Assembly (NCBI GenBank): GCA_964575755.1
Contig: CAZNRH010000001.1
Coordinates: 181,347 to 224,396 of the forward strand
Direction of reading: 5' to 3'
Source: an uncultured Candidatus Saccharibacteria bacterium
GTDB taxonomy: Bacteria > Patescibacteriota > Minisyncoccia > Phycocordibacterales > JABMNX01
Length of the DNA stretch: 43,050 bases
Of this stretch, positions 6,810 to 36,382 are shown piece by piece. A program made the position numbers and the translations under genes. How positions within the stretch are numbered: position 1 is the first letter of the stretch; every line of letters begins with the position of its first letter. Below the pieces are notes generated by a model, which was given only the letters and a program-made list of their open reading frames with translations, was not told where the DNA came from and did no database searches.

Positions 6810-7418
6810 TTACATACGGTTTTTGAGAGCGCTTTTAATTGTTTCTGTGTCGGAGTATTCGAGTTCTGAGCCTGTTGAAAGACCTCGTCCAAGGGTTGAG
6901 ACTTTTATATCAGTTGTAAAGATTATAGGCTCAAGCACTCTTTGAATATATTGTATGGTGTTTTCTCCTTCTGGATTTATCGAGAAGGCGAGTATAATCT
7001 CTTTTAATCCTTCTTTTTGGCGTGCTGTAACCACACGCTCTAACTCTTTTGTTCGTATCGATTTGTCAGGATCTTTGTCTAGAATCGGCACCGTCCCACC
7101 AACTACAAAATAGTATCCATCATACCCCTTAGCCCTTTCTATATTATCTAAGTCCACATCTTTCTCTACAAGCATGAGAGTGGAAGACTCTCTGTTTTTA
7201 TTCGCGCATATTAAACATAGTTCTTTGTGATTAGAATGAAAACGGCTACACATTGTACATGCTTTAGTATCATCTTTAATTGAACCAATAAGTCGTATTA
7301 ATTCACTTCTATAACTATGAGATGAAGAAAGTAAAAAATACACAAAGCGACTTGCTTGGCGTGGACCAATACCAGGTAATCGTTTTAAAAGTTCTGTAAG
7401 TTTTTGAATACTATCCAT
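6810..7418 (-). CDS. recR: recombination protein RecR
   Basis: N-terminal LPGIGPRQA helix-hairpin-helix, a C4 zinc finger (C..C....C..C) and a Toprim region. Confidence 0.9.
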   Translation of the reverse strand: MDSIQKLTELLKRLPGIGPRQASRFVYFLLSSSHSYRSELIRLIGSIKDDTKACTMCSRFHSNHKELCLICANKNRESSTLMLVEKDVDLDNIERAKGYDGYYFVVGGTVPILDKDPDKSIRTKELERVVTARQKEGLKEIILAFSINPEGENTIQYIQRVLEPIIFTTDIKVSTLGRGLSTGSELEYSDTETIKSALKNRM

Positions 7419-7457
7419 TGTTTAGGAATTAAGAATAATGAATTAGGAAGTAGAGGG

Positions 7458-18699: not shown

Positions 18700-20076
18700 T
18701 TATAAGTAAGAGAGAGGATTCAAATAAGCATCGAGTGGAGCTATTGGTATGCGTACATCTCCACAATTGGTTATTTTCTTAACATCCCCAAGACGAACTA
18801 CCTTGACTCCTTGTGATGCATACACAGTGAAGTGTAGATGTGGCCCTGTTGAATATCCTGTATTACCACTAAATCCGATAACATCCCCAGTAGAGACTTC
18901 TTGGCCTGCTTTAACGGATATATAAGAAAGGTGTGCGTAAAGTGTCGAAAGTCCATTTTTATGTTTTACGAGTATCCATTTGCCATAAGAGTAGCAACCT
19001 TTTTGTAGATCTGTGTTCCCCGTCTCTACTATTGTTCCAGAAAGGGCCGATTGTACTTTAGTGCCAATTGAAGAACGAAAGTCTGTTCCGTTATGTCCCC
19101 CACCGTTGTAAACTTGTGGGTTTTGTGTAGCAAATGGAGTATTTCCGAAATATTGTGTGATGCAGTTTATATTACCTAGGTACTTTTTATACGCAGTACA
19201 TCCTTGCATTTGAGTGTTAGTAAAAGGCCATCGCAAAATTCCTGATCCAAATGGAGGAATACTTCCTGGGTCAACTGCAATACGAAGTTGAGATTCCAAC
19301 TCAAGCATTTCATTTTCAAACTGTTCACGAGCCACTACACGTTCACTAAGGAGGTCTTGGTATTCTGATTCTTTTTCAACGGTTTGGTTTAAAAGCACGT
19401 TTTTCTTAGATAGATTTCCTTCAAGTACATTCTTTTGCCCAGAAAGTTGCACATTATAATTTGTTAACTGCCCTTTTTTCTTTTCAGAAGTCTTTTTTGT
19501 ATCTTCTAGGTCGCTTTTAAGTTGCTTAAGTACTTTAAGTTCATCACGTACCACTACCTGGAACTTTTGTAGTGTTTCAAGTTTATTCCAAAACTCATCT
19601 AGATTGTCGTAACCAAGCATTATCTCGATCATAGATTGAGACTCTATTTCATTAATTCTACGTATAGCTAAAGCAACCGCTTGAGTGTCGTTATATATAC
19701 GGTCTCCTTTTGTTACAATCTCTTCACCGAGTTCCTGAATCTGTAATGTTGTTGAGTAGATTTGGTTCTGTGTAATTTTTATATTAGTGAGTAACTTTCT
19801 TTTAGATACAGCAAGTTCGTTAATGGCATTTTCCAACGTCTTTTTGTTACTACCAATAACATTTAATTCTGATTCGTACTGAGCTATTTCTACTTCAAGT
19901 GCCGCTATTTTAGCATTAAAGTCAGAGATTTCTTTTTTAAGTTCATCTACACTAGCAGCTTCAACTTGAGATATAGTAAATACAAAAAATAATGATGTAA
20001 GTAACACTAAACAGCTTACTATTCCTGCGATAGAATATATGAGTGTTTTTGTTTGACTAGAGTTGTTCTTGTGCAT
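18700..20076 (-). CDS. M23 family metallopeptidase with an N-terminal TM segment and long coiled coil (EnvC-like)
   Basis: HNGTDF, YGKWILVKHKNGLSTLYAHL and GNTGYSTGPHLHF are LytM-domain motifs. The start is set at MHKNNSS (20076), 20 nt inside the gltX 3' end. Confidence 0.85.
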   Translation of the reverse strand: MHKNNSSQTKTLIYSIAGIVSCLVLLTSLFFVFTISQVEAASVDELKKEISDFNAKIAALEVEIAQYESELNVIGSNKKTLENAINELAVSKRKLLTNIKITQNQIYSTTLQIQELGEEIVTKGDRIYNDTQAVALAIRRINEIESQSMIEIMLGYDNLDEFWNKLETLQKFQVVVRDELKVLKQLKSDLEDTKKTSEKKKGQLTNYNVQLSGQKNVLEGNLSKKNVLLNQTVEKESEYQDLLSERVVAREQFENEMLELESQLRIAVDPGSIPPFGSGILRWPFTNTQMQGCTAYKKYLGNINCITQYFGNTPFATQNPQVYNGGGHNGTDFRSSIGTKVQSALSGTIVETGNTDLQKGCYSYGKWILVKHKNGLSTLYAHLSYISVKAGQEVSTGDVIGFSGNTGYSTGPHLHFTVYASQGVKVVRLGDVKKITNCGDVRIPIAPLDAYLNPLSYL

Positions 20077-21424
20077 CTTGGAGTCGTTTAATTGTTTCTT
20101 CTTTTCCAAAAATAGAAGAAAGTACAAATGGGTTTGGGGAGTTATCTTTACCTGATAGTGCCACTCGCATAGGCCACAACACAGACCCCCTACCGACTTC
20201 ACTTGAATAATCCCAGATAGAGTTTTTTACCGACTCTTCTGTAAATTCGTGCTGAGATAAAATGTCTAATTTCTCTATAATAACACCTAGATGTTTTTTG
20301 GTTGTTTCTGTGCTATCTTCTTTCCAAGAAAGTTTTGTTGTTATCTTTGGTGTAGAGAAAAAATAATCAAACTCCCCTACTGTAGATAAATCCGTTAATT
20401 CTTTAAAGGTATGTATGCGTTCTAGTATTTCTCCGGTTACTTTTTGTAGTCTGTCACGAGAGTATTGTGGAAGTTTTTTGATTCTTTCTGGTAACACTGT
20501 TTCAAATAAATCCAGAACATCTTCTTCTGGTAGAGTTTTTATGTGCTCACGATTAAACCAATTTAGTTTATTTATATCAAACACTGCCCCACCCTTCTGG
20601 ACTTGTTCCATCGAGAAATCCTTTATGAGTTCTGGTAGCGTATAAACCTCTTTTTCAGTACCTGGATTCCACCCTAAAAATGCTAAGTAGTTAATCAAAG
20701 CTTCTTTAATATAGCCATTTTTTCGATATTCAATAATTGAGGTGCTTCCCTTTCGTTTTGACATTTTAGAGCGATCTGAGGCTAAAATAAGCGGAATATG
20801 GGCATATATTGGCTCTTTTATGTCCAAAGCTCGCTGTATAAGTATCTGTCGAGGGGTGTTTGATATATGGTCCTCTCCACGTATCACGTGCGTAACCCCC
20901 ATCTCATAGTCATCTACTACTACCGCTAGATGATACAAAGGCTCTGTCATAGAGCGTGCTATAACAAAGTCTCCAAGATCGGTTGTATCGAAAGTTATTT
21001 CGTCTCGTATTTTATCTTTAAAAGTTATGGTCTCGCCACTATTTCTTAAACGGACAACTTCCACTTGAATGTTCGGATCTTTCTTACTTGCTTCTTTTGA
21101 TATGAATGCCTTTCCAGAATCTACTAACTGTTTTAGATATTTTGTATATACCTCTTCCCTCTCTGACTGTCTGTACAATTCGTCGTGAGTTATTCCTAAC
21201 CAAGAAAGTCCTTCGAGGATATCTTTCTCGAATTTTAATTCACTGCGTTCTTTATCTGTATCTTCAATACGTATTATAAACTTACCGCCATGCGCCTTAG
21301 CATAAAGATAGTTATATAAAGCTGTTCGTGCTGTTCCTAAATGAAGAGGCCCTGTTGGGCTCGGTGCAATTCGAGTAACGACTTTTTTAGACGAAAATAT
21401 ATTTTTAAAAAAATTAAGATTCAT
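20057..21424 (-). CDS. gltX: glutamyl-tRNA synthetase
   Basis: RIAPSPTGPLHLGTAR (HIGH-type) and KMSKRKG (KMSKS). The first ATG is at 21424; the track's 21430 is a TTG. It overlaps the murG stop. Confidence 0.9.
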   Translation of the reverse strand: MNLNFFKNIFSSKKVVTRIAPSPTGPLHLGTARTALYNYLYAKAHGGKFIIRIEDTDKERSELKFEKDILEGLSWLGITHDELYRQSEREEVYTKYLKQLVDSGKAFISKEASKKDPNIQVEVVRLRNSGETITFKDKIRDEITFDTTDLGDFVIARSMTEPLYHLAVVVDDYEMGVTHVIRGEDHISNTPRQILIQRALDIKEPIYAHIPLILASDRSKMSKRKGSTSIIEYRKNGYIKEALINYLAFLGWNPGTEKEVYTLPELIKDFSMEQVQKGGAVFDINKLNWFNREHIKTLPEEDVLDLFETVLPERIKKLPQYSRDRLQKVTGEILERIHTFKELTDLSTVGEFDYFFSTPKITTKLSWKEDSTETTKKHLGVIIEKLDILSQHEFTEESVKNSIWDYSSEVGRGSVLWPMRVALSGKDNSPNPFVLSSIFGKEETIKRLQDAQEQL

Positions 21425-22544
21425 GTTCAATGCCTATATTAATTAATTCTTCTGCTATGGTGCGTGCAGCGTCTGGACGAGAAAAGGTTTTTGCACTCTC
21501 TGACATACGTTTCATTTCCTCTGGGTTATTAAACAGACGGCTTATTTCTGTATTGAGTAAGTGAGGCGTTAAATTGTTTTGTTCAATCACAATAGCTGCT
21601 CCTGATCGTGCGTAGGTAAATGCATTAGTGCTCTGGTCTCTGGAAATATTTCTTGGAATTGGAATTATAATACTTGGTATTCCAGCCGCAGCTGTCTCGA
21701 AGATTCCACCAGAACCAGCTCTCGTAACTACTAAGTCAGCTGCCCCATATGTCATACGAAGAGCAAGTACGTTTAAAAGTCCAAACGCGTGATACCTAGA
21801 TTTGTTTGGATGGTCTGCGATTATTACATCAACTCTGCTTTTAAGCTCTTCTATATTTTTACTCCCTACTTGATGTATTACCTGAAACTTTGGGAGTAAT
21901 TCAGCTAAAGCATCAACGACTGCGTTGTTGATTGCTTGAGCGCCTTGGGACCCTCCGAGTATAAGAATTACGGGTACATTTGGCTCCAAGTTTAAGTATT
22001 CAAAAGCCCCTTCTTTTTCCGGTTTAAATAATTCTTTTCTAATTGGATTGCCTGTATGTGCAACTCTGTTGTGTGGTAATTTCTCTGCGAGCTCTGGGTA
22101 CGAGATAGCAACACTTTTTGCAAACTTAGCGGTCCAAGCATTTGTTCGTCCCATGATTGAATCTGACTCATGCACAACAACCGGTATATTCAATATCCGC
22201 GCAGCTAAAACAGTTGGAAAGCTTGCATACCCACCCTTACTAAATACTACATCAGGATAGATGAAATAAAGTTTAATCAAAGCAAGGAATGCCCCAAACA
22301 GAGTCTTAACCATATCTATGTAATTCCAAATAGATGCATAGTTTCGTAATTTCCCAGCGCTACTATAATAATGCTCTATATTAAGCTCAAACAGAGCTCG
22401 TTCTTCAAACGGCTTTGGTCCAAAGTAATAAAGTGTGGGTTGAAGTAGTTTCTTTTCAGCGACTATTGCTTTAATTTCTTGTGCTACTGCAATAAGAGGG
22501 TAAAAATGCCCACCACTTCCTGATCCTGTTAAGACTATTCTCAT
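21414..22544 (-). CDS. murG: UDP-N-acetylglucosamine--N-acetylmuramyl-(pentapeptide) pyrophosphoryl-undecaprenol GlcNAc transferase MurG
   Basis: The GSGGHFYPLIAV N-terminal motif, GGSQGA and TRAGSGGIFE are typical of MurG. Confidence 0.9.
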   Translation of the reverse strand: MRIVLTGSGSGGHFYPLIAVAQEIKAIVAEKKLLQPTLYYFGPKPFEERALFELNIEHYYSSAGKLRNYASIWNYIDMVKTLFGAFLALIKLYFIYPDVVFSKGGYASFPTVLAARILNIPVVVHESDSIMGRTNAWTAKFAKSVAISYPELAEKLPHNRVAHTGNPIRKELFKPEKEGAFEYLNLEPNVPVILILGGSQGAQAINNAVVDALAELLPKFQVIHQVGSKNIEELKSRVDVIIADHPNKSRYHAFGLLNVLALRMTYGAADLVVTRAGSGGIFETAAAGIPSIIIPIPRNISRDQSTNAFTYARSGAAIVIEQNNLTPHLLNTEISRLFNNPEEMKRMSESAKTFSRPDAARTIAEELINIGIEHES

Positions 22545-26229: not shown

Positions 26230-29200
26230 TTACTCTGTCGATGTTTCCGCTGATGCCTCAACTGTCACGGTACGAGTTACCTTATTGGCAATATTACCGG
26301 CAATGTCTGACACATTATAGATTACAGTGTACACCCCTGCAGTGGCAGTATCTACTGTGTTCTCCACCGTAACAGATGATGTGACATCACCATCAGTGTC
26401 ATCAAGAGCTGTCGCACCTTCATCAAAGTAGGTTTCATCTACAACAAGGATTATCTCTTCTTTACCAATAAGTGTGATGATGGGTGATGTGGTGTCTTTC
26501 ATAGTGAGTACAGTAACCGCCCTCGTAACCTCTGTTGCTTGATTGCCTGCAGCATCGGATACGTTGTAAGTGATAGTGTACACTCCTTCTGTATCAGTAA
26601 GTACACTGTCGCCCCCTATAATAATATTTGTAGTAATGTCACCATCTACATCATCTGTTGCCACAACACCTTCCTCTGTGTAACTATCTCCAACGTTAAG
26701 CTCAAAAGCATTTTCCGCATTGAGTGTAATTACAGGTGAAGTGATATCGACTGGAATATTATTTGATGAAGTACTAGAGGCAACACCTCCACCATTCTCA
26801 CTTGAATCATCTGCTTCTGTGTACGGATCATAGACAACCACTTGTCGCTCTGCTGTTGTTGTGTTTCCATCGTTATCAGTTGTGCGATAAATAATCGTAT
26901 ACGTGCCAACTTCTGATGTATCAATTTGAATATTGCTGAAATCGCCCACATCCACATCATCCACACTCGCATAAAGTCCAAGATTATTGCCCTTATCATC
27001 AGTAATGACAGCGCCGAGGTCAGAATATATAAATCCGACTTCAATTTCTGCTGGATTGTTGCCTAATATTGTTATTGTTGGAGAGATCAAAGAGGTATTA
27101 TTTGCGTCACTGGAATCTGTTCCGCCAGGAGTTGTTCCAGACAAAAGTGTTTTCAATTCTGTTAATTCTTTTTTGTTCAAGCATACTTCACCACCAGTAT
27201 CTCCTATACACAATTCCTCTTTTGCAATAATTCTACCAACCACTAATGTTCCGTCACTTTCTTGATCTGTTACGAATTCCTCTACTGTCCCAACAAGAGT
27301 AAGTGAATTCACTTGACCCTGCAGGACTTCAATCTGTTCCTGCTGATCTTGAATAGATTTTACCAAAAGTGGTGTAATCCTACCGTAATCAACACCCCAC
27401 AATTCATCACTTTCAAGTTTAGCAGATACAGCTTCTGGATATATTTCATAAAGTTCTTGAGCAATAAAACCTATTGTATCAATATCACTGGTCTTCATAT
27501 TGAAATCCCTAACCTTAATTTTAAGCAAATCTTCAAGCGTATAATGAGTATCGCGAATATTTTCTTTAGCTCGTCTATCAGAAGTTGTATTATAAACGAC
27601 TCCTCCTGCACCATCACCACTAATTGTCGCTATCATTGTATTATCACCATCAACAAACCCTACAAATTTAGTATTACTACCTGGATTGATGTTTGGACCT
27701 GTTCTAATATATATACCTGAAGCATAATCGTTCGTGCTGTCATTACGAAATACTGTCTGGAAACCAGCTGATTCGGTCCCAATAGAATTAAAATGCCCTA
27801 CAGAATCAATATCCACTTTCTTGACATTATTTGTCAAAAATTCAAGAATACCATCACCAGTACTGAACATCCCGCTATCCGTATCACCTGCAGAATCAAA
27901 AGTATATCCATTATTATTTACACCTCCCGCACCAGGGGTTCCTCCTCTTGCTCTTATTCCTCCCGTAACATCTAAGCTAACAGCTGGACTAACATTACTT
28001 ATTCCAACCTTTCCAGAACCAGCTCCTAGAATCAAATCACCCCACCCAAATCCTGGATTCAAAACATTAATATAACCTTTCATCGTTGATCCGTTAAATC
28101 CAAATCGTAAACCACTGTTGGTATCGGTATTATTTGAAATGATTACTTGTTGGTTGTCTGTGTCATTGCTAATATACTCTGGCACTTCTATCAATAAATT
28201 AGAAATAGAAGTTGTTGTGCCAATACTGACATATCCACTACTGTTTATCCTCATTCTTTCATTATTATTGGTATAAAATTGCAAAAGACCGTCCGAGGTG
28301 CTGAACATTCCACTATCCGTATCACCTGAAGAATCAAAAGCATATCCATTATTATTTACACCTCCCGCACCAGGAATTCCTCCTCTTGCTCTTATTCCTC
28401 CAGTAACATCTAAACTAACAGCTGGACTTATTGTCCCAATGCCTATTTTTCCGTCTTGTTGAAGAGTCAACACAGTTCCGCTTCCTGGATCATCAAATGT
28501 TGTGCTAATTTTTAATTTATGAGAATCGCTTGCGTCTGTTCCAAAACTCCAATCTGTGCTAATCAAGCCAGAATAAAAAGTTATATACTCGTCGCTAGTA
28601 GAATTATCTGGAGCATAAAATCTAAGCGATGCTTCACCACTTCCTATTTGTTCAATCTTTGAAATAAGATAATTATCGTCACCATAGATATGTAATTTTT
28701 CGTTAGGTGAATCCGTCCCAATTCCTACTTGTCCCTGCGTTGCATCCACAAACAATGCGTTGTAATTTATTCCTTCTGCCACTCTAAAATCACCCATTAT
28801 TTCCAATGGTGTGGCAGGGCTTGTTGTGCCAATTCCGACACGATTATTAAATGAATCAACAACCAATGTATTTGTATCGAATCGCGCGTCAGTGGCAAAG
28901 GTAGAAGTTGAGTTAAACCACGATTGTCCTGTGTTTGTAAGAAGTGTTGACGATGCATTACCTAATGTAGAAAGTCCTGTAAACCATGATGTCCCAGATA
29001 CTGAAAATTGTGTTGTGCTAGCATTACCAAAAGTAGCAAGGTTTGTGAACCATGATTTATCTGATACTGAAAGCCGAGTTGAAGATGCGTTACCCAAGGT
29101 TGTCAATCCAGTAAACCAAGAAAGTCCGCTGTTAGTTAATTGTGTTGTTGACGCATTGCCGAGAGTTGTTTGTCCGGATACCACTAAATATCCTGAAAGT

Positions 29201-30195
29201 GATTGATCGGTTGATGAGGCGGTAGTGAAAGCTGAATGACCTGCTATTTGCACAGTTGATGACGCATAAAATGCACCCTGAGACCACCACGGCATTGTAG
29301 AGCTTGCTGTTAAATTTGTTACTCCGTAGTTTGTCGCAAATGTCCAGTTTTCCTCAGCTGTTTTAACTATGTTGCCACTCCAATAAAGAACGCCCGCATT
29401 GTTGTAAAGAGCGTTAGATGTAACATCAGGTGTAGAACTTGAAATCAAAATACCTTCTGAAAAAGTGCTAGTGGCGGTAAAATAGGAATCACCAGAAACT
29501 GAGAATGTCGCAGACGGTGTTGTTGTGCCAATACCCAATCGCCCCCCCGAAGTAAATGTCAAAAGTTGTGTTCCTGTATCAGTAATAATACGAAATAAAT
29601 CAGCAACTTGACTGGCAAAGCCACGAATTACGAGGGGAGTCGCCGAAGTGGTTGTTGCTTCAACAGTTAGTTCGGCTGTCGAGAAAGGGGTTGTTGTTCC
29701 AACTACCGACTGACCTGTGCCAAAAACGTGATCAGAGGTAAATGCTTGCGCAGTAGCACCAATCCTTTGTCGCGGAGTCATCTCCGAATCAGACCCGACT
29801 GTTACACCCAGCCAATACGTGTCACCGGTAAAATCAAGAGTCATAGTATTACCCGTGCCCGAACCAAGAAGAACCCTAAAAAGCCCACTTGATAAAGAAA
29901 CAGCGTTACCGTTTGCTGTTGTATGAGTGCCTGTCCAGAGAGTAGTTCCACTTGTTGAGGCATCGTAAATACGAAATATTATATTGTAGTTGCCATCGGA
30001 AACATTTGCGCCTGTTGAGTCTTGTAGCACCCCCTGATATGGAATCTGTTTGTTAATGCCAGGAGCAGCCAAAGCAAATCCAGCAGGCATTATTGTTAAT
30101 ATTGTAAAAATAATTAAAACAAAACCAATTAAGAGTTTTTTACCCTTACTCTTGTAAGTTCTGATGTTTTTTAATCTTATGCTTTTGAGTTTCAA
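26230..30195 (-). CDS. 1321-aa tail-fibre-like surface protein: signal/TM, fibre-type repeats, an internal Peptidase S74 (intramolecular chaperone) domain, a coiled coil, and three C-terminal Ig-like (DUF5011-type) domains
   Basis: The S74 signature TSDRRAKENI...GFIAQELYEIYPEAV...GVDYGRITPLLVKSIQDQQEQIE spans aa ~872-965. There are three repeats of P.ITL.G...........Y.D.GA.A.DD.DG..T.........T...G.YT..Y.V.D..GN.A....R.V.V. The only in-frame start upstream of the signal peptide is a TTG (30195). Confidence 0.85.
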   Translation of the reverse strand: MKLKSIRLKNIRTYKSKGKKLLIGFVLIIFTILTIMPAGFALAAPGINKQIPYQGVLQDSTGANVSDGNYNIIFRIYDASTSGTTLWTGTHTTANGNAVSLSSGLFRVLLGSGTGNTMTLDFTGDTYWLGVTVGSDSEMTPRQRIGATAQAFTSDHVFGTGQSVVGTTTPFSTAELTVEATTTSATPLVIRGFASQVADLFRIITDTGTQLLTFTSGGRLGIGTTTPSATFSVSGDSYFTATSTFSEGILISSSTPDVTSNALYNNAGVLYWSGNIVKTAEENWTFATNYGVTNLTASSTMPWWSQGAFYASSTVQIAGHSAFTTASSTDQSLSGYLVVSGQTTLGNASTTQLTNSGLSWFTGLTTLGNASSTRLSVSDKSWFTNLATFGNASTTQFSVSGTSWFTGLSTLGNASSTLLTNTGQSWFNSTSTFATDARFDTNTLVVDSFNNRVGIGTTSPATPLEIMGDFRVAEGINYNALFVDATQGQVGIGTDSPNEKLHIYGDDNYLISKIEQIGSGEASLRFYAPDNSTSDEYITFYSGLISTDWSFGTDASDSHKLKISTTFDDPGSGTVLTLQQDGKIGIGTISPAVSLDVTGGIRARGGIPGAGGVNNNGYAFDSSGDTDSGMFSTSDGLLQFYTNNNERMRINSSGYVSIGTTTSISNLLIEVPEYISNDTDNQQVIISNNTDTNSGLRFGFNGSTMKGYINVLNPGFGWGDLILGAGSGKVGISNVSPAVSLDVTGGIRARGGTPGAGGVNNNGYTFDSAGDTDSGMFSTGDGILEFLTNNVKKVDIDSVGHFNSIGTESAGFQTVFRNDSTNDYASGIYIRTGPNINPGSNTKFVGFVDGDNTMIATISGDGAGGVVYNTTSDRRAKENIRDTHYTLEDLLKIKVRDFNMKTSDIDTIGFIAQELYEIYPEAVSAKLESDELWGVDYGRITPLLVKSIQDQQEQIEVLQGQVNSLTLVGTVEEFVTDQESDGTLVVGRIIAKEELCIGDTGGEVCLNKKELTELKTLLSGTTPGGTDSSDANNTSLISPTITILGNNPAEIEVGFIYSDLGAVITDDKGNNLGLYASVDDVDVGDFSNIQIDTSEVGTYTIIYRTTDNDGNTTTAERQVVVYDPYTEADDSSENGGGVASSTSSNNIPVDITSPVITLNAENAFELNVGDSYTEEGVVATDDVDGDITTNIIIGGDSVLTDTEGVYTITYNVSDAAGNQATEVTRAVTVLTMKDTTSPIITLIGKEEIILVVDETYFDEGATALDDTDGDVTSSVTVENTVDTATAGVYTVIYNVSDIAGNIANKVTRTVTVEASAETSTE

Positions 30196-31633: not shown

Positions 31634-31759
31634 GTAGTCATATTGTACATCGGTTATAAAGCTAAGCAAGTTCGAAACTTATTTTTTGTAGATGGACAGA
31701 TGTCTTTTTATGTTGTAAATTATGTGTATCCAAAGAGATTAGAAAAAGGAGATATTTCA

Positions 31760-32335
31760 ATGGGTACTGTACATCTAACTAATGGTCACCATGGTTTGAT
31801 TTGTAGGAATAAGGATTGTCATCTTGATCGAAGGCATGTGCTCACCGAGCAAATGTTGGATTTACAAATCATGTTGTCTCGCGACAATATACTTCGAAGT
31901 GAGAGAGGGTCTATTGTGCGAGCGGCGTTACACGCTTTGCTTAACCTTAAAGGTTTTGATTCAGCTATCTCACTTGGTTATAGTGACTCACCAAAACCGT
32001 CTCTAATCATACCTAAGCGTGTGTGGGGTGAGATAACTCACATCGGTAAACCAAGGAAATTGGTTGTAATATTTTCACACGACTCGCGTAAAGGTAACGC
32101 ACCTTTTTACTCTCTTGAGCAGTGGTTAGAGGACAATCAGCCAAAAGATTCCACTGACACAGAATACAGTAAGTTTGAAAAATTGTGGTCTGATGCATCG
32201 ATGTGGGACATGTTCTTTAAAAGTCGGATTACTCTTGAAGTTGAGAAATTACGTTCTAATGCCGAAGAGCTTCACGAGAAAGCAATGCGACTTGCCGATG
32301 AAGCATCTGTTGTTGAAACACAAATGTTTAAGTAG
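31760..32335 (+). CDS. hypothetical 191-aa protein
   Basis: AAGGAG lies 8 nt before the ATG at 31760, and a strong GC-rich terminator follows. The gene looks more GC-rich than its neighbours by eye. No family recognised. Confidence 0.55.
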   Translation: MGTVHLTNGHHGLICRNKDCHLDRRHVLTEQMLDLQIMLSRDNILRSERGSIVRAALHALLNLKGFDSAISLGYSDSPKPSLIIPKRVWGEITHIGKPRKLVVIFSHDSRKGNAPFYSLEQWLEDNQPKDSTDTEYSKFEKLWSDASMWDMFFKSRITLEVEKLRSNAEELHEKAMRLADEASVVETQMFK

Positions 32336-32396: not shown

Positions 32397-33485
32397 TTAG
32401 AGGGCTATATATTTTAAGCTAGCTTTGACAAGCTTTTTCATGTCATTGAATCGACCCTCAAATGAAGACCCGAGTACCACGGCGATAATAGGATGATTAA
32501 TTCCCGCATCAAATGCAATAGCTAGATTTCCTCCTGCTAAGTCAGTAAACCCTGTTTTTGAAGCTATTAGTCCTGGGATGTTACCGATACCTGAGTTGGT
32601 GTTGGTTGCGTTATATATAAATTGGTCTTCTGAAACAAAACTAAGATTTTTATACGCGGTCGCCTCTAGTAATTGTGGACGGTCTGAAATTATATAAGCT
32701 AAAAGTGATGCTATGTCTCTGGCAGAGCCATATCCTCCCCCAATATATGCATTTGCATCAAGTCCACTTTCGTTAATAAAATACGATTGCATTAACCCTA
32801 AAGACTGCGCCGTCTGATTCATTTTATTTACAAAGTTAACGTGATTATCAGTATCCTCTGTCTGCGTGTCGTTTATAAATGCTCCAGCAACTCCAGCAAT
32901 CGCATGCGCTCCGTCATTTGATGAAACAAGTAGCGTGTAGTCTAGTAAGTCTTTAAATTTCCATCGTTCGTTAGTATGAAAACCATTATCCCCATCTATT
33001 GCGATTGATGACTCATCTATTGTGATAATAGTCTCGTCTGAAATAAGAGTAGATGCCACTAAAGCCGTCATAAGTTTTGTAATTGATGCTAGGGGTAGCT
33101 GAGAGTGTTCGTTCTTTGAAAAAAGAATTTCTTTTGTATCTAAATCATATACATAAGCTGCTTTAGCTTCTATTGATATATGCTCAAATGGATTAATTGT
33201 AGTAGTAATAGTCTGCGGTGGGGTCGCCACTATTTTTTCTTTTTGAATATCAAAAATATTTTCATCAAACACAAACAGGCTTAAGATTAGAAGTCCACCT
33301 AATACCCCCATGCGAAGCAGTACAGAATCGTTCTTTGTTGATTCCGCAACTTTTGTGGTTTCTTGCTTAACGTCCTGGTCTTGGTCTCCGGACATGATTC
33401 CTTGCGAGGAATCAGACGTGATATTTTGCGAAATATCAGAATTGTCTGTTGGTTGTGTTATGTTTTTTTGTTTGTAGTTGTCCAT
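32397..33485 (-). CDS. D-alanyl-D-alanine carboxypeptidase (S11, PBP5/6-like)
   Basis: SITK (SxxK), SSND (SxN) and KTGFT (KTG) motifs. The N-terminal TM is preceded by a disordered segment that carries two hairpin modules. Confidence 0.85.
   Translation of the reverse strand: MDNYKQKNITQPTDNSDISQNITSDSSQGIMSGDQDQDVKQETTKVAESTKNDSVLLRMGVLGGLLILSLFVFDENIFDIQKEKIVATPPQTITTTINPFEHISIEAKAAYVYDLDTKEILFSKNEHSQLPLASITKLMTALVASTLISDETIITIDESSIAIDGDNGFHTNERWKFKDLLDYTLLVSSNDGAHAIAGVAGAFINDTQTEDTDNHVNFVNKMNQTAQSLGLMQSYFINESGLDANAYIGGGYGSARDIASLLAYIISDRPQLLEATAYKNLSFVSEDQFIYNATNTNSGIGNIPGLIASKTGFTDLAGGNLAIAFDAGINHPIIAVVLGSSFEGRFNDMKKLVKASLKYIAL
33396..33437 (-). repeat. two in-frame 18-nt hairpin modules in the N-terminal segment of the DD-carboxypeptidase gene
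   Basis: Sense GATATTT-CGCA-AAATATC (33420-33437) and GATTCCT-CGCA-AGGAATC (33396-33413), both perfect 7-bp stems. They encode DISQNI and DSSQGI and are followed by ATGTCCGGAGACCAA. Confidence 0.85.
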
Positions 33486-33494
33486 TTTTACTAT

Positions 33495-34148
33495 TTAAGC
33501 TTCTGAGTCTGCGGTTTCTTGGGTAGCGCTTTGGTCTCCGGACATGATGTCTTGCGAAGATGATCCGTCTTTGGACGTGATATTTTGCGAAATATCAAAA
33601 GCCCTTATCTCTTTTTGTACATCATCATATTCTGGAAGTTCATTAATGTTGGATATTCCAAGAAGTGATAGAAGTGAAAATGTTGGGCGATATAGAAAAC
33701 TACGTGCGTCTTCAGGGTTTGGCATTTTTTCGATTAGTCCACGTACCATTAGATTTCTAATAATAAACGTTGAGTTTACTCCGCGTATATAATCTATACC
33801 CGCTCTAGTTATGGGTGATTGGTATGCAATAATAGAAAGTGTTTCTAGCCCAGCCTTTCCGATATCTTTTGAAAGCTCCTCCTTTCGTAATTCAAGAAGG
33901 ATATCAGAATATTTAAGTGCTGTGCGTAGTGCTACACTGTCGTTTAATTCCACCAGAATGATTCCACGACCAGAGAGGGCTACTTTAAGTTCAGAAATAC
34001 CTGTATCTATTTCATCAGCATTCTTTTTAAGTGTTTTTTCGAGCCACGTTTTCTTTACGGGTTCATTTTTAAAGAACAAAACAGCCTCTATTTTTCTACT
34101 GAGGTCATCTTTTGCGTTAATTTCTGGGCTGTTTGTTAATTCATCCAT
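33495..34148 (-). CDS. scpB: segregation and condensation protein B
   Basis: IEAVLF....P........L and ETLSIIAYQSPITRAGIDYIRGV are winged-helix motifs typical of ScpB. Confidence 0.85.
   Translation of the reverse strand: MDELTNSPEINAKDDLSRKIEAVLFFKNEPVKKTWLEKTLKKNADEIDTGISELKVALSGRGIILVELNDSVALRTALKYSDILLELRKEELSKDIGKAGLETLSIIAYQSPITRAGIDYIRGVNSTFIIRNLMVRGLIEKMPNPEDARSFLYRPTFSLLSLLGISNINELPEYDDVQKEIRAFDISQNITSKDGSSSQDIMSGDQSATQETADSEA
33546..33596 (-). repeat. hairpin modules in the C-terminal tail of scpB (one perfect, one degenerate)
   Basis: Sense GATATTT-CGCA-AAATATC (33579-33596) is perfect. The second module (33546-33565) keeps CGCA-AGACATC, but its 5' arm has mutated. A 23-nt stretch, GATATTTCGCAAAATATCACGTC, is identical to the copy 159 nt downstream in the next gene. 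Confidence 0.8.
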
Positions 34149-34978: not shown

Positions 34979-36382
34979 TTAATATTCTTCAATGAATCTA
35001 GTAAGTAGTCTCACTGGTTCTCCAGCGGCTCCATTAGAGAGATTATCACTAGGTACTGTTGTCATGCGCGGTGCTATATCTATATGTGCCCATACACACC
35101 CCCTGGGATAGTTTTTTGTGAATTGGTATAGAAACATTCCTCCGTTAATAGCTCCTCCATATCTTGGGTTCTTTGTAGCGAGGTTAGCTACATCAGCTAT
35201 TCTTCCTTGTACACCTTCGTTATATTCCTCCCATAGAGGTAGTGGCCAAACATAGTCCCCTGTTTCCTCTCCAAATTGAGTAAGTTTTGCCACTAAATTA
35301 CTGTCTTGAGACATTACAACAGATGCTTGTTGACCTAATGCCACAAGAGATGCTCCTGTAAGTGTTGCTACATCTATAACTGCTTTTGGATTGTATTTCT
35401 TTGCGTATGTTAGTGCATCAGCTAATACAAGCCTCCCCTCCGCATCAGTATCTACTACTTCAATAGTTTTCCCTGACATAGATTTAAGTACGTCTCCTGG
35501 ACGAAATGAGCTTCCTGACACCATGTTTTCAACTGAAGGAATTAAAGCGATCACATTTTTCTTTAATTTAAGGCGCGCCACGAGTGCGATTGTCGCCATA
35601 ACTGCGGCACCGCCAGACATATCCATATGCATTCCGGATAACCCACCGCCTATTTTTAAATTAAGTCCACCGCTGTCAAAAGTAACTCCTTTACCTACAA
35701 GCACAATTGGTTTTTCGCTTTTCTTTCCACCTTTATATTCCATAACAATAAACTTCGGTTCTTCTGGTGAACCTTTTGCAACTCCAAGAATTGCACCCAT
35801 TTTTAATTTTTCTAGTTCTTTTTTACCAAGAGATGAAGTCTGTATTTTTGTATTTCTAGAAAGTCTTTTAGCGTGAGCTGTTAATATTCTAGGTGTCATA
35901 TCGCCACCCGGAGTGTTCGACATAAGTCTGCACTCGTTAACCATTTCTCCAATTACCCTACCTTTAGCTATACCTTTTTTAATTTCAGAACTTTTTACGT
36001 TTGTAATAGATATTTCCTCTATATCTCCCCAGCCTGCTTTTGGTTTAGTTTTAAAATCATGGAACTCGTAACCAGCCATCAGTAAATTTTGTGCAACAAT
36101 AGACCCGAGCTCTTTTGGAGCCAAGTTTGATATGTTTTTAAACTCATTAATATCTATAGATATCTTATTTACTTTATATAACTTGGCTGTTCGAACAACT
36201 CTCCTAATGACTTTTATAAATTTCCGGAAGTTATCTTTCTCTGCTTTTACTATCTTTATTTCAATTCTAGTTAGTTTTTTTGCATCCTCAATAAATCTAG
36301 TTTGCCCTTTTTCAGTGAAAGTTATTTGAGTTATTTTACTAGGTTGTTTTACAGTTTTTTTTTCTTGCGTAGTTATTTTCAT
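34979..36382 (-). CDS. pepA: leucyl aminopeptidase (M17)
   Basis: VGKGVTFDSGGLNLK and VDTDAEGRLVLADAL are M17 active-site motifs. The start is the 3' ATG of element C4. Confidence 0.9.
   Translation of the reverse strand: MKITTQEKKTVKQPSKITQITFTEKGQTRFIEDAKKLTRIEIKIVKAEKDNFRKFIKVIRRVVRTAKLYKVNKISIDINEFKNISNLAPKELGSIVAQNLLMAGYEFHDFKTKPKAGWGDIEEISITNVKSSEIKKGIAKGRVIGEMVNECRLMSNTPGGDMTPRILTAHAKRLSRNTKIQTSSLGKKELEKLKMGAILGVAKGSPEEPKFIVMEYKGGKKSEKPIVLVGKGVTFDSGGLNLKIGGGLSGMHMDMSGGAAVMATIALVARLKLKKNVIALIPSVENMVSGSSFRPGDVLKSMSGKTIEVVDTDAEGRLVLADALTYAKKYNPKAVIDVATLTGASLVALGQQASVVMSQDSNLVAKLTQFGEETGDYVWPLPLWEEYNEGVQGRIADVANLATKNPRYGGAINGGMFLYQFTKNYPRGCVWAHIDIAPRMTTVPSDNLSNGAAGEPVRLLTRFIEEY

Follow-up and report, generated by a model that had tools for sequence, protein, structure and literature searches.

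Two related modules at the scpB/dac boundary

The 43-kb stretch of DNA analysed here (from contig CAZNRH010000001.1; hereafter the window, to which coordinates refer unless another contig is named) carries scpB and the gene for a DD-carboxypeptidase (dac) head to tail on its minus strand, with a gap of 9 nt, and the facing ends of the two genes contain modules built from the same hairpin-forming repeat. The C-terminus of ScpB is encoded as ...AFDISQNITSKDGSSSQDIMSGDQSATQETADSEA followed by the stop (its end being ...FDISQNITSKDGSSSQDIMSGDQSATQETADSEA), and the N-terminus of Dac as MDNYKQKNITQPTDNSDISQNITSDSSQGIMSGDQDQDVKQETT... (starting MDNYKQKNITQPTDNSDISQNITSDSSQGIMSGDQDQDVKQ...). The scpB module as a whole reads DISQNITSKDG-SSSQDIMSGDQ-SATQETADSEA up to the stop. 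The Pfam domain of ScpB covers residues 19-173 of 217, with the module beyond it, and the S11 domain of Dac begins at residue 104, with the module N-terminal to it. Among named sequences, the closest homologues of the window's proteins come from Kaiserbacteria/Paceibacterota, and a related metagenome-assembled genome (MAG), GCA_964625905.1, is labelled 'Candidatus Saccharibacteria'; we refer to the host as a member of the Candidate Phyla Radiation (CPR)/Patescibacteria.

The initial annotation of this DNA had proposed that the two tails share a hairpin-built module, and this was borne out, as were the genes and translations it gave. The 23-mer that it listed as identical, GATATTTCGCAAAATATCACGTC, has exactly two copies in the 43 kb (33415-33437 and 33574-33596, minus strand) and no match in 100 shuffles, even with 3 mismatches permitted; the 15-mer ATGTCCGGAGACCAA likewise has exactly two copies (33381-33395 and 33531-33545; shuffle mean 0.02). 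The module had been given the form hairpin 1, 6 nt, hairpin 2, repeated 159 nt apart, which fits the dac copy and the spacing of hairpin 1 but neither the scpB copy, whose period is 33 nt rather than the 24 nt of dac because it contains an extra 9-nt 'KDG' segment, nor the second part of the module (ATGTCC...), whose copies lie 150 nt apart. Perfect hairpins are formed by GATATTT-CGCA-AAATATC (twice) and, as annotated for dac, by GATTCCT-CGCA-AGGAATC, although the stem has 8 bp rather than 7, the flanking C/T and G/A covarying as described below. The second scpB hairpin (TCATCT-TCGCAA-GACATC), annotated as decayed, is indeed imperfect, yet it represents the usual internal-unit form of 33-nt arrays (GAT-CA-TCN...) with further mismatches added.

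The dac module has a mosaic structure. Unit 1 is the same as that of neighbouring scpB; from ATCACGTCT on, comprising unit 2 and the 3' part, it is identical at 51 of 53 positions to the end of an array between prfA and rpsB in the related MAG, far above the 75-81% nucleotide identity of orthologous genes in the two genomes, though the prfA-rpsB and dac loci are not orthologous. The similarity between scpB and dac spans only ~90 nt, short of the 159-nt period, so this is no simple tandem duplication. No promoter-like sites were found in the scpB-dac region.

The unit was represented both by a covariance model (R1) and by the DNA pattern YGATNNNTCNCAANNNATCR. In the window there are three modules with six units, all inside open reading frames (ORFs), and an R1 scan gives no others; within the scpB module R1 matches 33567-33597 at 45.8 bits and 33534-33563 at 18 bits. 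Coordinates of the features are collected in Table 1.

Table 1. Genes, modules, hairpin units and the empty M17 site in the window.
Feature	Position	Strand	Description
scpB gene	33495..34148	-	217 aa; PF04079 match
DD-carboxypeptidase gene (dac)	32397..33485	-	362 aa; Peptidase_S11 match
scpB C-terminal module	33495..33597	-	unit 1, unit 2 at 33-nt period, 3' tail to TAA stop
scpB unit 1 hairpin	33578..33597	-	TGATATTT-CGCA-AAATATCA; 8 bp, perfect
Mini-hairpin 3' of scpB unit 1	33566..33577	-	CGTC-CAAA-GACG
scpB unit 2	33531..33565	-	degenerate, internal type: GATCATCT-TCGCAA-GACATC, then ATGTCCGGAGACCAA
dac N-terminal module	33339..33437	-	~99 nt, D17-S49 (DISQNITS-DSSQGIMSGDQ-DQDVKQETTKVAES); insert edges fuzzy
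dac unit 1 hairpin	33419..33438	-	TGATATTT-CGCA-AAATATCA; 24-nt period; R1 27.3 bits
dac unit 2 hairpin	33395..33414	-	TGATTCCT-CGCA-AGGAATCA; commonest ('master') unit of the family; R1 51.2 bits
3' part of dac unit	33381..33394	-	TGTCCGGAGACCAA; GTC-CGGA-GAC mini-stem
rplU (L21) gene	6240..6743	+	167 aa; PF00829
Third module, L21 N-terminal extension	6317..6371	+	two perfect 8-bp hairpins, then GTC-CACA-GAC
L21 hairpin 1	6317-6336	+	CGATTCTT-CGCA-AAGAATCG
L21 hairpin 2	6341-6360	+	TGATGTCT-CGCA-AGACATCA
Empty M17 aminopeptidase site	36350..36355	-	M17 gene 34979..36382; between codons 10 and 11 (...KKT / VKQ...)

Anatomy of the unit and covariation of its stem

The unit is 33 nt long (11 codons) or, in a shorter variant, 24 nt (8 codons), and it has three parts: an 8-bp stem, (C/T)GAT-NNN-T paired with A-N'N'N'-ATC-(G/A); a CNCA loop, which is CGCA or CTCA and once CGCG; and a mini-hairpin, GTC-NNNA-GAC. 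Stem and 4-nt loop together make a palindrome of 20 nt. Units stand alone or in head-to-tail arrays, after which comes a 3' piece of looser conservation (GACCAAGAC...GTTAAGCA...), and all share one register, GAT-NNN-TCG-CAA-N'N'N'-ATC-(A/G)(T/C)G-TC(N), read D-x-S-Q-x'-I-(M/V/T)-S, in which codons 2 and 5 are reverse complements of each other. Internal units of the 33-nt arrays take the form GAT-CA-TCC-T...A-GGA-ATC, with a 2-nt bulge. The stem reaches 13 bp in some copies (GGACACGATTCCT-CGCA-AGGAATCGTGTCC in L035), which identifies 'ATGTCC' as the outer 3' arm of a longer palindrome. When folded, each unit gives a local 8-bp hairpin and the ends of the element stay unpaired with each other; with RNA parameters the folding z-scores are modest (-1.6 to -2.8), and those obtained with DNA parameters are if anything stronger.

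Sixteen distinct 'first-type' units from the window and related loci were aligned. Four of the eight stem pairs are invariant and the other four show changes on both sides, with 98.4% of cells paired. Conserved in sequence are the outer (C/T)GAT...ATC(G/A) and the closing T-A; the three inner pairs need only pairing. The outermost pair, which is C-G in 8 units and U-A in 8 and so covaries in 16/16, couples the synonymous third base of one codon to the first base of a codon for Val, Met or Thr. A covariation score as high as that observed was reached in 0 of 500 shuffles, controls with slid partners were 32-50% paired, and only one G·U pair occurs in the stem alignment. The five inner stems (ATT/AAT, TCC/GGA, TCT/AGA, GTC/GAC and TTC/GAA) translate to I/N, S/G, S/R, V/D and F/E; because paired codons specify unrelated amino acids, the constraint acts on a nucleic acid hairpin and not on the peptide. 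Compensatory change is also seen in the mini-stem: the window's scpB copy has CGTC-CAAA-GACG where a unit in the M17 aminopeptidase gene of the related MAG has CGCC-CAAA-GGCG.

The consensus unit is free of stop codons in all six frames, as are 0.5% of random 33-mers at the genome's composition, and its peptide, DSSQGIVSGDR, is hydrophilic. GANTC (CcrM-type) methylation sites were considered as a feature of the family and rejected: they are present in GATTC/GAATC units and not in the ATT, GTC and TTC variants.

Dispersed copies, filled sites and empty sites

The modules had been described as sitting only in the presumably disordered ends of the two proteins; they do lie outside the Pfam domains, but they are not limited to this gene boundary. 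The pattern GATNNNTCGCAANNNATC has 5 matches in the window against 0.1 expected, and two of these fall at 6318-6359 in the L21 gene, 27 kb away. The L21 module encodes DSSQRIAP-DVSQDIMSTD and is missing from all 27 of the nearest L21 homologues that were examined, among them the L21 of the related MAG. These 27 do have a Lys-rich N-terminal extension, which is common in L21 of this clade at a length of 30-45 residues (homologues P0123-P0148; MADTKV...KK...E-FAVIETGGKQY; window 6240-6425), and the hairpin module is an insertion into an extension that already existed.

Synteny between the window and the related MAG extends over ~30 kb (L039 and L040), and their ScpB proteins are 71% identical. 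The scpB tail is filled in both genomes (DSSQGIVSGDR-SSSQGIVSEDKDQDIKH... in the related MAG), and in its unit 1 all four variable stem pairs are exchanged, from TGATATTT.. in the window to CGATTCCT.. in the relative. At the dac N-terminus the window is filled and the related MAG empty (a net difference of 29 codons; a 33-codon insert in a manual alignment), and the same holds for L21, whose length is 140 aa in the related MAG. The M17 aminopeptidase shows the reverse: its N-terminus is empty in the window and filled in the related MAG by one 33-nt unit exactly (GDSSRGIAPKG), which leaves a clean difference of 11 codons. This M17 unit (L039 7158-7179) is a perfect 22-nt palindrome, GCGATTCCTCG/CGAGGAATCGC, in which the loop has changed from CGCA to CGCG and the centre is an NruI-like TCGCGA.

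The next-closest ScpBs (181-204 aa) end ...ELPEYEEVRKEIDQFEKEQKEYVE (...QFEKEQKEYVE) without the module, and the tail was not found in the closest ScpB homologues, one excepted. Orthologues thus uphold the tails as lineage-specific, neither the closest other ScpBs nor the dac of the related MAG having the module, and on these comparisons the modules are lineage-specific insertions into pre-existing, presumably disordered termini.

Further copies are present at ~eight loci in the related MAG and in metagenome contigs, our copy counts covering the window, the related-MAG loci and these contigs. The sites in the related MAG are the prfA tail with an array in the prfA-rpsB spacer, the C-terminal tail of S2, the scpB tail and the M17 N-terminus. 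At prfA-rpsB (L012) the repeat begins within the C-terminus of prfA (RF1; ...GETEKD-DSSQGIVSTDRSSSQ before the stop) and forms an array of ~400 nt with a 33-nt period, running from the prfA ORF through the spacer to rpsB; the C-terminal end of the S2 protein consists of two units plus DVKQRTIKSNKSD. When metagenome contigs were scanned with the commonest unit, eight loci were found, all in VAPL/VAPM assemblies. Their coding contexts are the scpB tail, an N-terminus, and an internal linker in an open frame of 267 codons (252 aa when counted from its first ATG) that has no Pfam match; the intergenic ones are typA-DUF4389 and the region upstream of a dksA-like gene. Modules measure 33-105 nt and arrays up to ~400 nt, and the unit numbers seen (1, 2, 3, and 8 or more) give an appearance of variation. 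The L012 array (5750-5846, with an N-run) has at least two 33-nt units more than the otherwise near-identical contig L033 (3000-3200), a difference that may be true copy-number variation or a collapse or break in short-read assembly.

All copies are co-oriented with their flanking genes, the R1 matches elsewhere lying always on the sense strand of these, and all nine coding copies use the same one of the three stop-free sense frames. In the intergenic copies the 'coding' frame has TGA in place of the GGA of other units, so that under code 11 they are untranslated in that frame. Code 25 (UGA = Gly), under which the intergenic arrays would be translatable, was ruled out by the 29 long ORFs of the window, which are intact under code 11, and by their stop usage (TAA 21, TAG 7, TGA 1). 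The lone TGA stop belongs to an ATGA overlap of ftsW and murG at 22541-22544.

We also note two intergenic copies with flanking repeats. In L034 (7383-7478) a 15-nt direct repeat, TATATAAAGAATATG and TAAATAAAGAATATG, 81 nt apart, surrounds the unit at 7399-7449, the sole copy flanked in this way; the second repeat includes the ATG of the downstream dksA/traR-like gene and looks like a start-region duplication resembling a target-site duplication. In L031 (1211-1325) the two-unit module between typA/bipA and DUF4389 lies within a 16-nt, 94% complementary inverted repeat (TATAAATACGGATATT and AATGTCCGTATTTATA), which may be a hairpin or terminator whose loop took in the element.

The two-unit DNA pattern matched 27 times among 185,579 species genomes; 26 of these are non-palindromic chance matches in unrelated phyla and the one real match is L012. 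No match to the repeat was seen in phage, plasmid or viral contigs, no Rfam family matched it at the gathering score (only a tRNA in L012/L033 did), and no description of such a repeat was found in full-text literature on Saccharibacteria or Patescibacteria searched with palindromic and repeat terms.

Elsewhere in the window, a tandem repeat with a 66-nt period (28944-29094; 2.3 copies, 72% match) lies inside the minus-strand gene (26230..30195) of a 1321-aa surface protein with Bact_surface_Ig-like and Peptidase_S74 domains. Between mraY and dac, opposite to the run of minus-strand genes, is an ORF of 230 aa without a Pfam match (31643-32335, plus strand); the related MAG has DUF2268, YcaO and a hypothetical protein at this position, which makes it a variable islet. 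The ORFs of GltX (20057..21430) and an M23 peptidase (18700..20202) overlap as listed by 146 nt (20057-20202), and the GTG at 20202 taken as the M23 start probably lies too far upstream.

Relation to known repeats and probable origin

Taken together, the repeat is dispersed over non-orthologous loci, has been gained or lost between relatives, occurs both between genes and within ORFs, and keeps its hairpin by compensatory changes. That small palindromic repeats can become part of conserved genes in frame is established for Rickettsia palindromic elements (RPE), ERIC, YPAL and the 107-bp NEMIS. These are intergenic or fused in frame in conserved essential genes, which tolerate them as additional peptide, and related genomes differ in which sites are filled or empty (PMC2229807). 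Our repeat resembles RPE and other ORF-fused MITEs (miniature transposable elements with inverted repeats) in its dispersed copies, intergenic as well as in frame in conserved ORFs, and in its filled and empty sites between relatives. However, those elements are single units of 100-200 bp, whereas here units of 24 or 33 nt, each with its own local 8-bp hairpin, are iterated head to tail. In those elements the terminal inverted repeats base-pair to form a single long stem-loop, and TA or target-site duplications are often present, whereas here the ends are unpaired and only the L031 copy lies within an inverted repeat. There is also no sequence similarity, and the host belongs to the CPR/Patescibacteria, not to Rickettsia or the enterobacteria.

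REP, REPIN and BIME elements, and those of the SMAG type, are imperfect palindromes of 20-40 nt that occur as monomers, pairs and clusters; the base of their stem is conserved while pairing alone is kept elsewhere, and they are likely recognised as single-strand hairpins. With its 20-nt palindrome the present repeat falls within this size class and shares the hairpin logic. Unlike REPs, which are extragenic and usually paired in inverted orientation, most of its copies are inside ORFs and all units are in direct orientation; its 5' end is (C/T)GAT rather than GT(A/G)G, with no GTAG in any aligned unit. REPs are moreover linked to a RAYT gene (a Y1 HUH transposase); no such gene was found here, either in the scanned ORFs of the window or in the genes called for L001, L039 and L040. 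Mycobacterial interspersed repetitive units (MIRU), a class of variable-number tandem repeat (VNTR), are minisatellites repeated in tandem where the genes of an operon meet; they follow the direction of transcription, their reading frames extend into the ends of the flanking genes, and their copy number varies. The transcription-oriented, head-to-tail arrays at operon boundaries overlapping gene ends, as in the prfA-rpsB array, the scpB tail and the dac N-terminus, are similar. MIRUs, however, have units of 46-101 bp that form no hairpin and show no stem covariation, and they are confined to mycobacteria, whereas the present units are palindromes of 24/33 nt that also stand singly well inside ORFs in a CPR host.

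On balance we favour, with moderate confidence, the view that the scpB and dac copies are local members of a lineage-restricted, REP/RPE-like family of dispersed hairpin repeats that spreads at the DNA level and is tolerated in disordered termini. The repeat would spread as DNA, either through an enzyme that recognises the hairpin in single-stranded DNA, by a logic like that of REP/RAYT or IS200/IS605, or through template switching or recombination among existing copies; what the mobilising or recombining activity recognises would be the hairpin, whose base and loop are conserved and whose middle covaries freely. Arrays may lengthen and shorten by slippage, and neighbouring copies may be homogenised by gene conversion, which would explain why unit 1 of dac equals that of scpB when the remainder of the module has its match at another locus. 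Insertions would survive where the hydrophilic peptide joins disordered termini or linkers of essential proteins, in-frame copies presumably persisting because the consensus unit lacks stops in six frames, is a multiple of three in length and encodes a hydrophilic peptide. For an element acting at the level of nucleic acid, the protein tails would therefore be by-products and not functional protein motifs.

Several observations weigh against this view. A strict single frame and strict co-orientation are not predicted by purely random insertion, and selection at the RNA or protein level could be at work; templated (quasi-palindrome) repair could also keep palindromes perfect without function or selection. 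Terminal inverted repeats and target-site duplications were not consistent, and no clear duplication was seen at the sites in dac, L21 or M17. Nor was a transposase or anything HUH/RAYT-like found among the genes named above, which cover the 43-kb window and ~40 kb of annotated related loci.

The alternative that we take most seriously, though we consider it unlikely, is a functional RNA element, whose hairpins in mRNA would protect against exonucleases, mark intercistronic processing sites or bind one protein that co-regulates housekeeping genes, their translation being incidental. The CNCA loop of every copy is on the sense strand of the flanking genes, and many copies lie at cistron boundaries (scpB/dac, prfA/rpsB, typA/DUF4389, upstream of the dksA-like gene); sequence conservation of loop and outer stem, with an inner stem that only covaries, is typical of RNA hairpins recognised by proteins, and the effects of REP, ERIC and NEMIS hairpins on mRNA stability provide a precedent (PMC2229807). 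However, the repeat comes and goes between close relatives in the same essential genes, which would be odd for a needed regulator, and copies lie 30-80 nt within ORFs, where ribosomes would unwind 8-bp stems. The lack of an Rfam match and the modest RNA z-scores, if anything exceeded by those for DNA, likewise speak against it, and just the single G·U pair is available to separate RNA from DNA pairing.

Selection on the peptide, with D-x-S-Q-x-I-(V/M/T)-S-x-D-x as a short linear motif of 8 or 11 residues shared by many proteins and the DNA similarity secondary, appears improbable. It would account for the common frame of the nine coding copies and for the invariance of D, S, Q, I, S and D in the peptide alignment, but the invariant residues are exactly those specified by the conserved stem and loop bases, and the variable ones change non-conservatively, as reverse-complement codon pairs. 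The eighth base pair ties a synonymous third position to the first position of the V/M codon in 16/16 units, and the intergenic copies retain the nucleotide pattern despite their in-frame TGA. A profile search of the motif against 1.84 billion proteins gave no true relatives, only three unrelated repetitive proteins; a word-based peptide search matched only the window's and the relative's own proteins; and orthologues work without the motif.

We give very little credence to a purely local event, a single duplication of one hairpin module from one side of the scpB/dac boundary to the other with no wider family behind it. Unit 1 is identical in the two neighbours over 23 nt, and its stem variant, ATT/AAT, was seen nowhere else, so that local copying or gene conversion between them is likely; as the whole story, which the initial annotation had implied, duplication across the boundary is refuted by the L21 module and the ~eight loci in relatives; the ~90-nt extent of the similarity also speaks against it, as does the mosaic dac copy, the rest of which is closer to a distant copy than to that of scpB. 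Finally, although tandem arrays of this family do break assemblies (the N-run in the L012 array and the shorter array of L033), a mis-assembly can be dismissed for the window, since unique sequence lies between its two copies and the modules recur elsewhere: both copies base for base in contig VAPM010775201.1 of an independent metagenome assembly (L037), the scpB copy without a difference as far as the contig reaches in a Logan assembly of another run, SRR14803398 (L038), and the L21 module in L001.

Two further candidates were rejected. A variable/template repeat pair of a diversity-generating retroelement does not fit, as there is no reverse transcriptase among the window proteins scanned and the differences between copies are an indel and mixed substitutions, not adenine-specific; nor does a CRISPR array, since units abut at a 24/33-nt period without spacers.

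Beyond the favoured view of a DNA-level repeat, it is quite possible, though somewhat less likely than not, that these copies represent an undescribed and currently active class of codon-phased hairpin repeats in CPR/Patescibacteria, moved by a hairpin-recognising enzyme and building lineage-specific tails on L21, S2, RF1, ScpB, a PBP-type carboxypeptidase and an M17 peptidase. If so, this would be the first RPE-like system of 'protein-coding palindromes' outside Proteobacteria and in genomes held to be streamlined. CPR genomes are tiny and thought to be poor in repetitive and mobile DNA. That a hairpin repeat has settled in the ends of ribosomal proteins, of RF1 and of genes for cell division or the cell wall indicates that selfish or structured DNA shapes even these proteomes, and it accounts for odd lineage-specific protein tails otherwise taken for new domains or annotation errors. 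The repeat may offer VNTR-like strain markers, poses the question of which enzyme recognises the (C/T)GAT-NNN-T-CNCA-A-NNN-ATC(G/A) hairpin, and provides a clean case of stem covariation written across codons.

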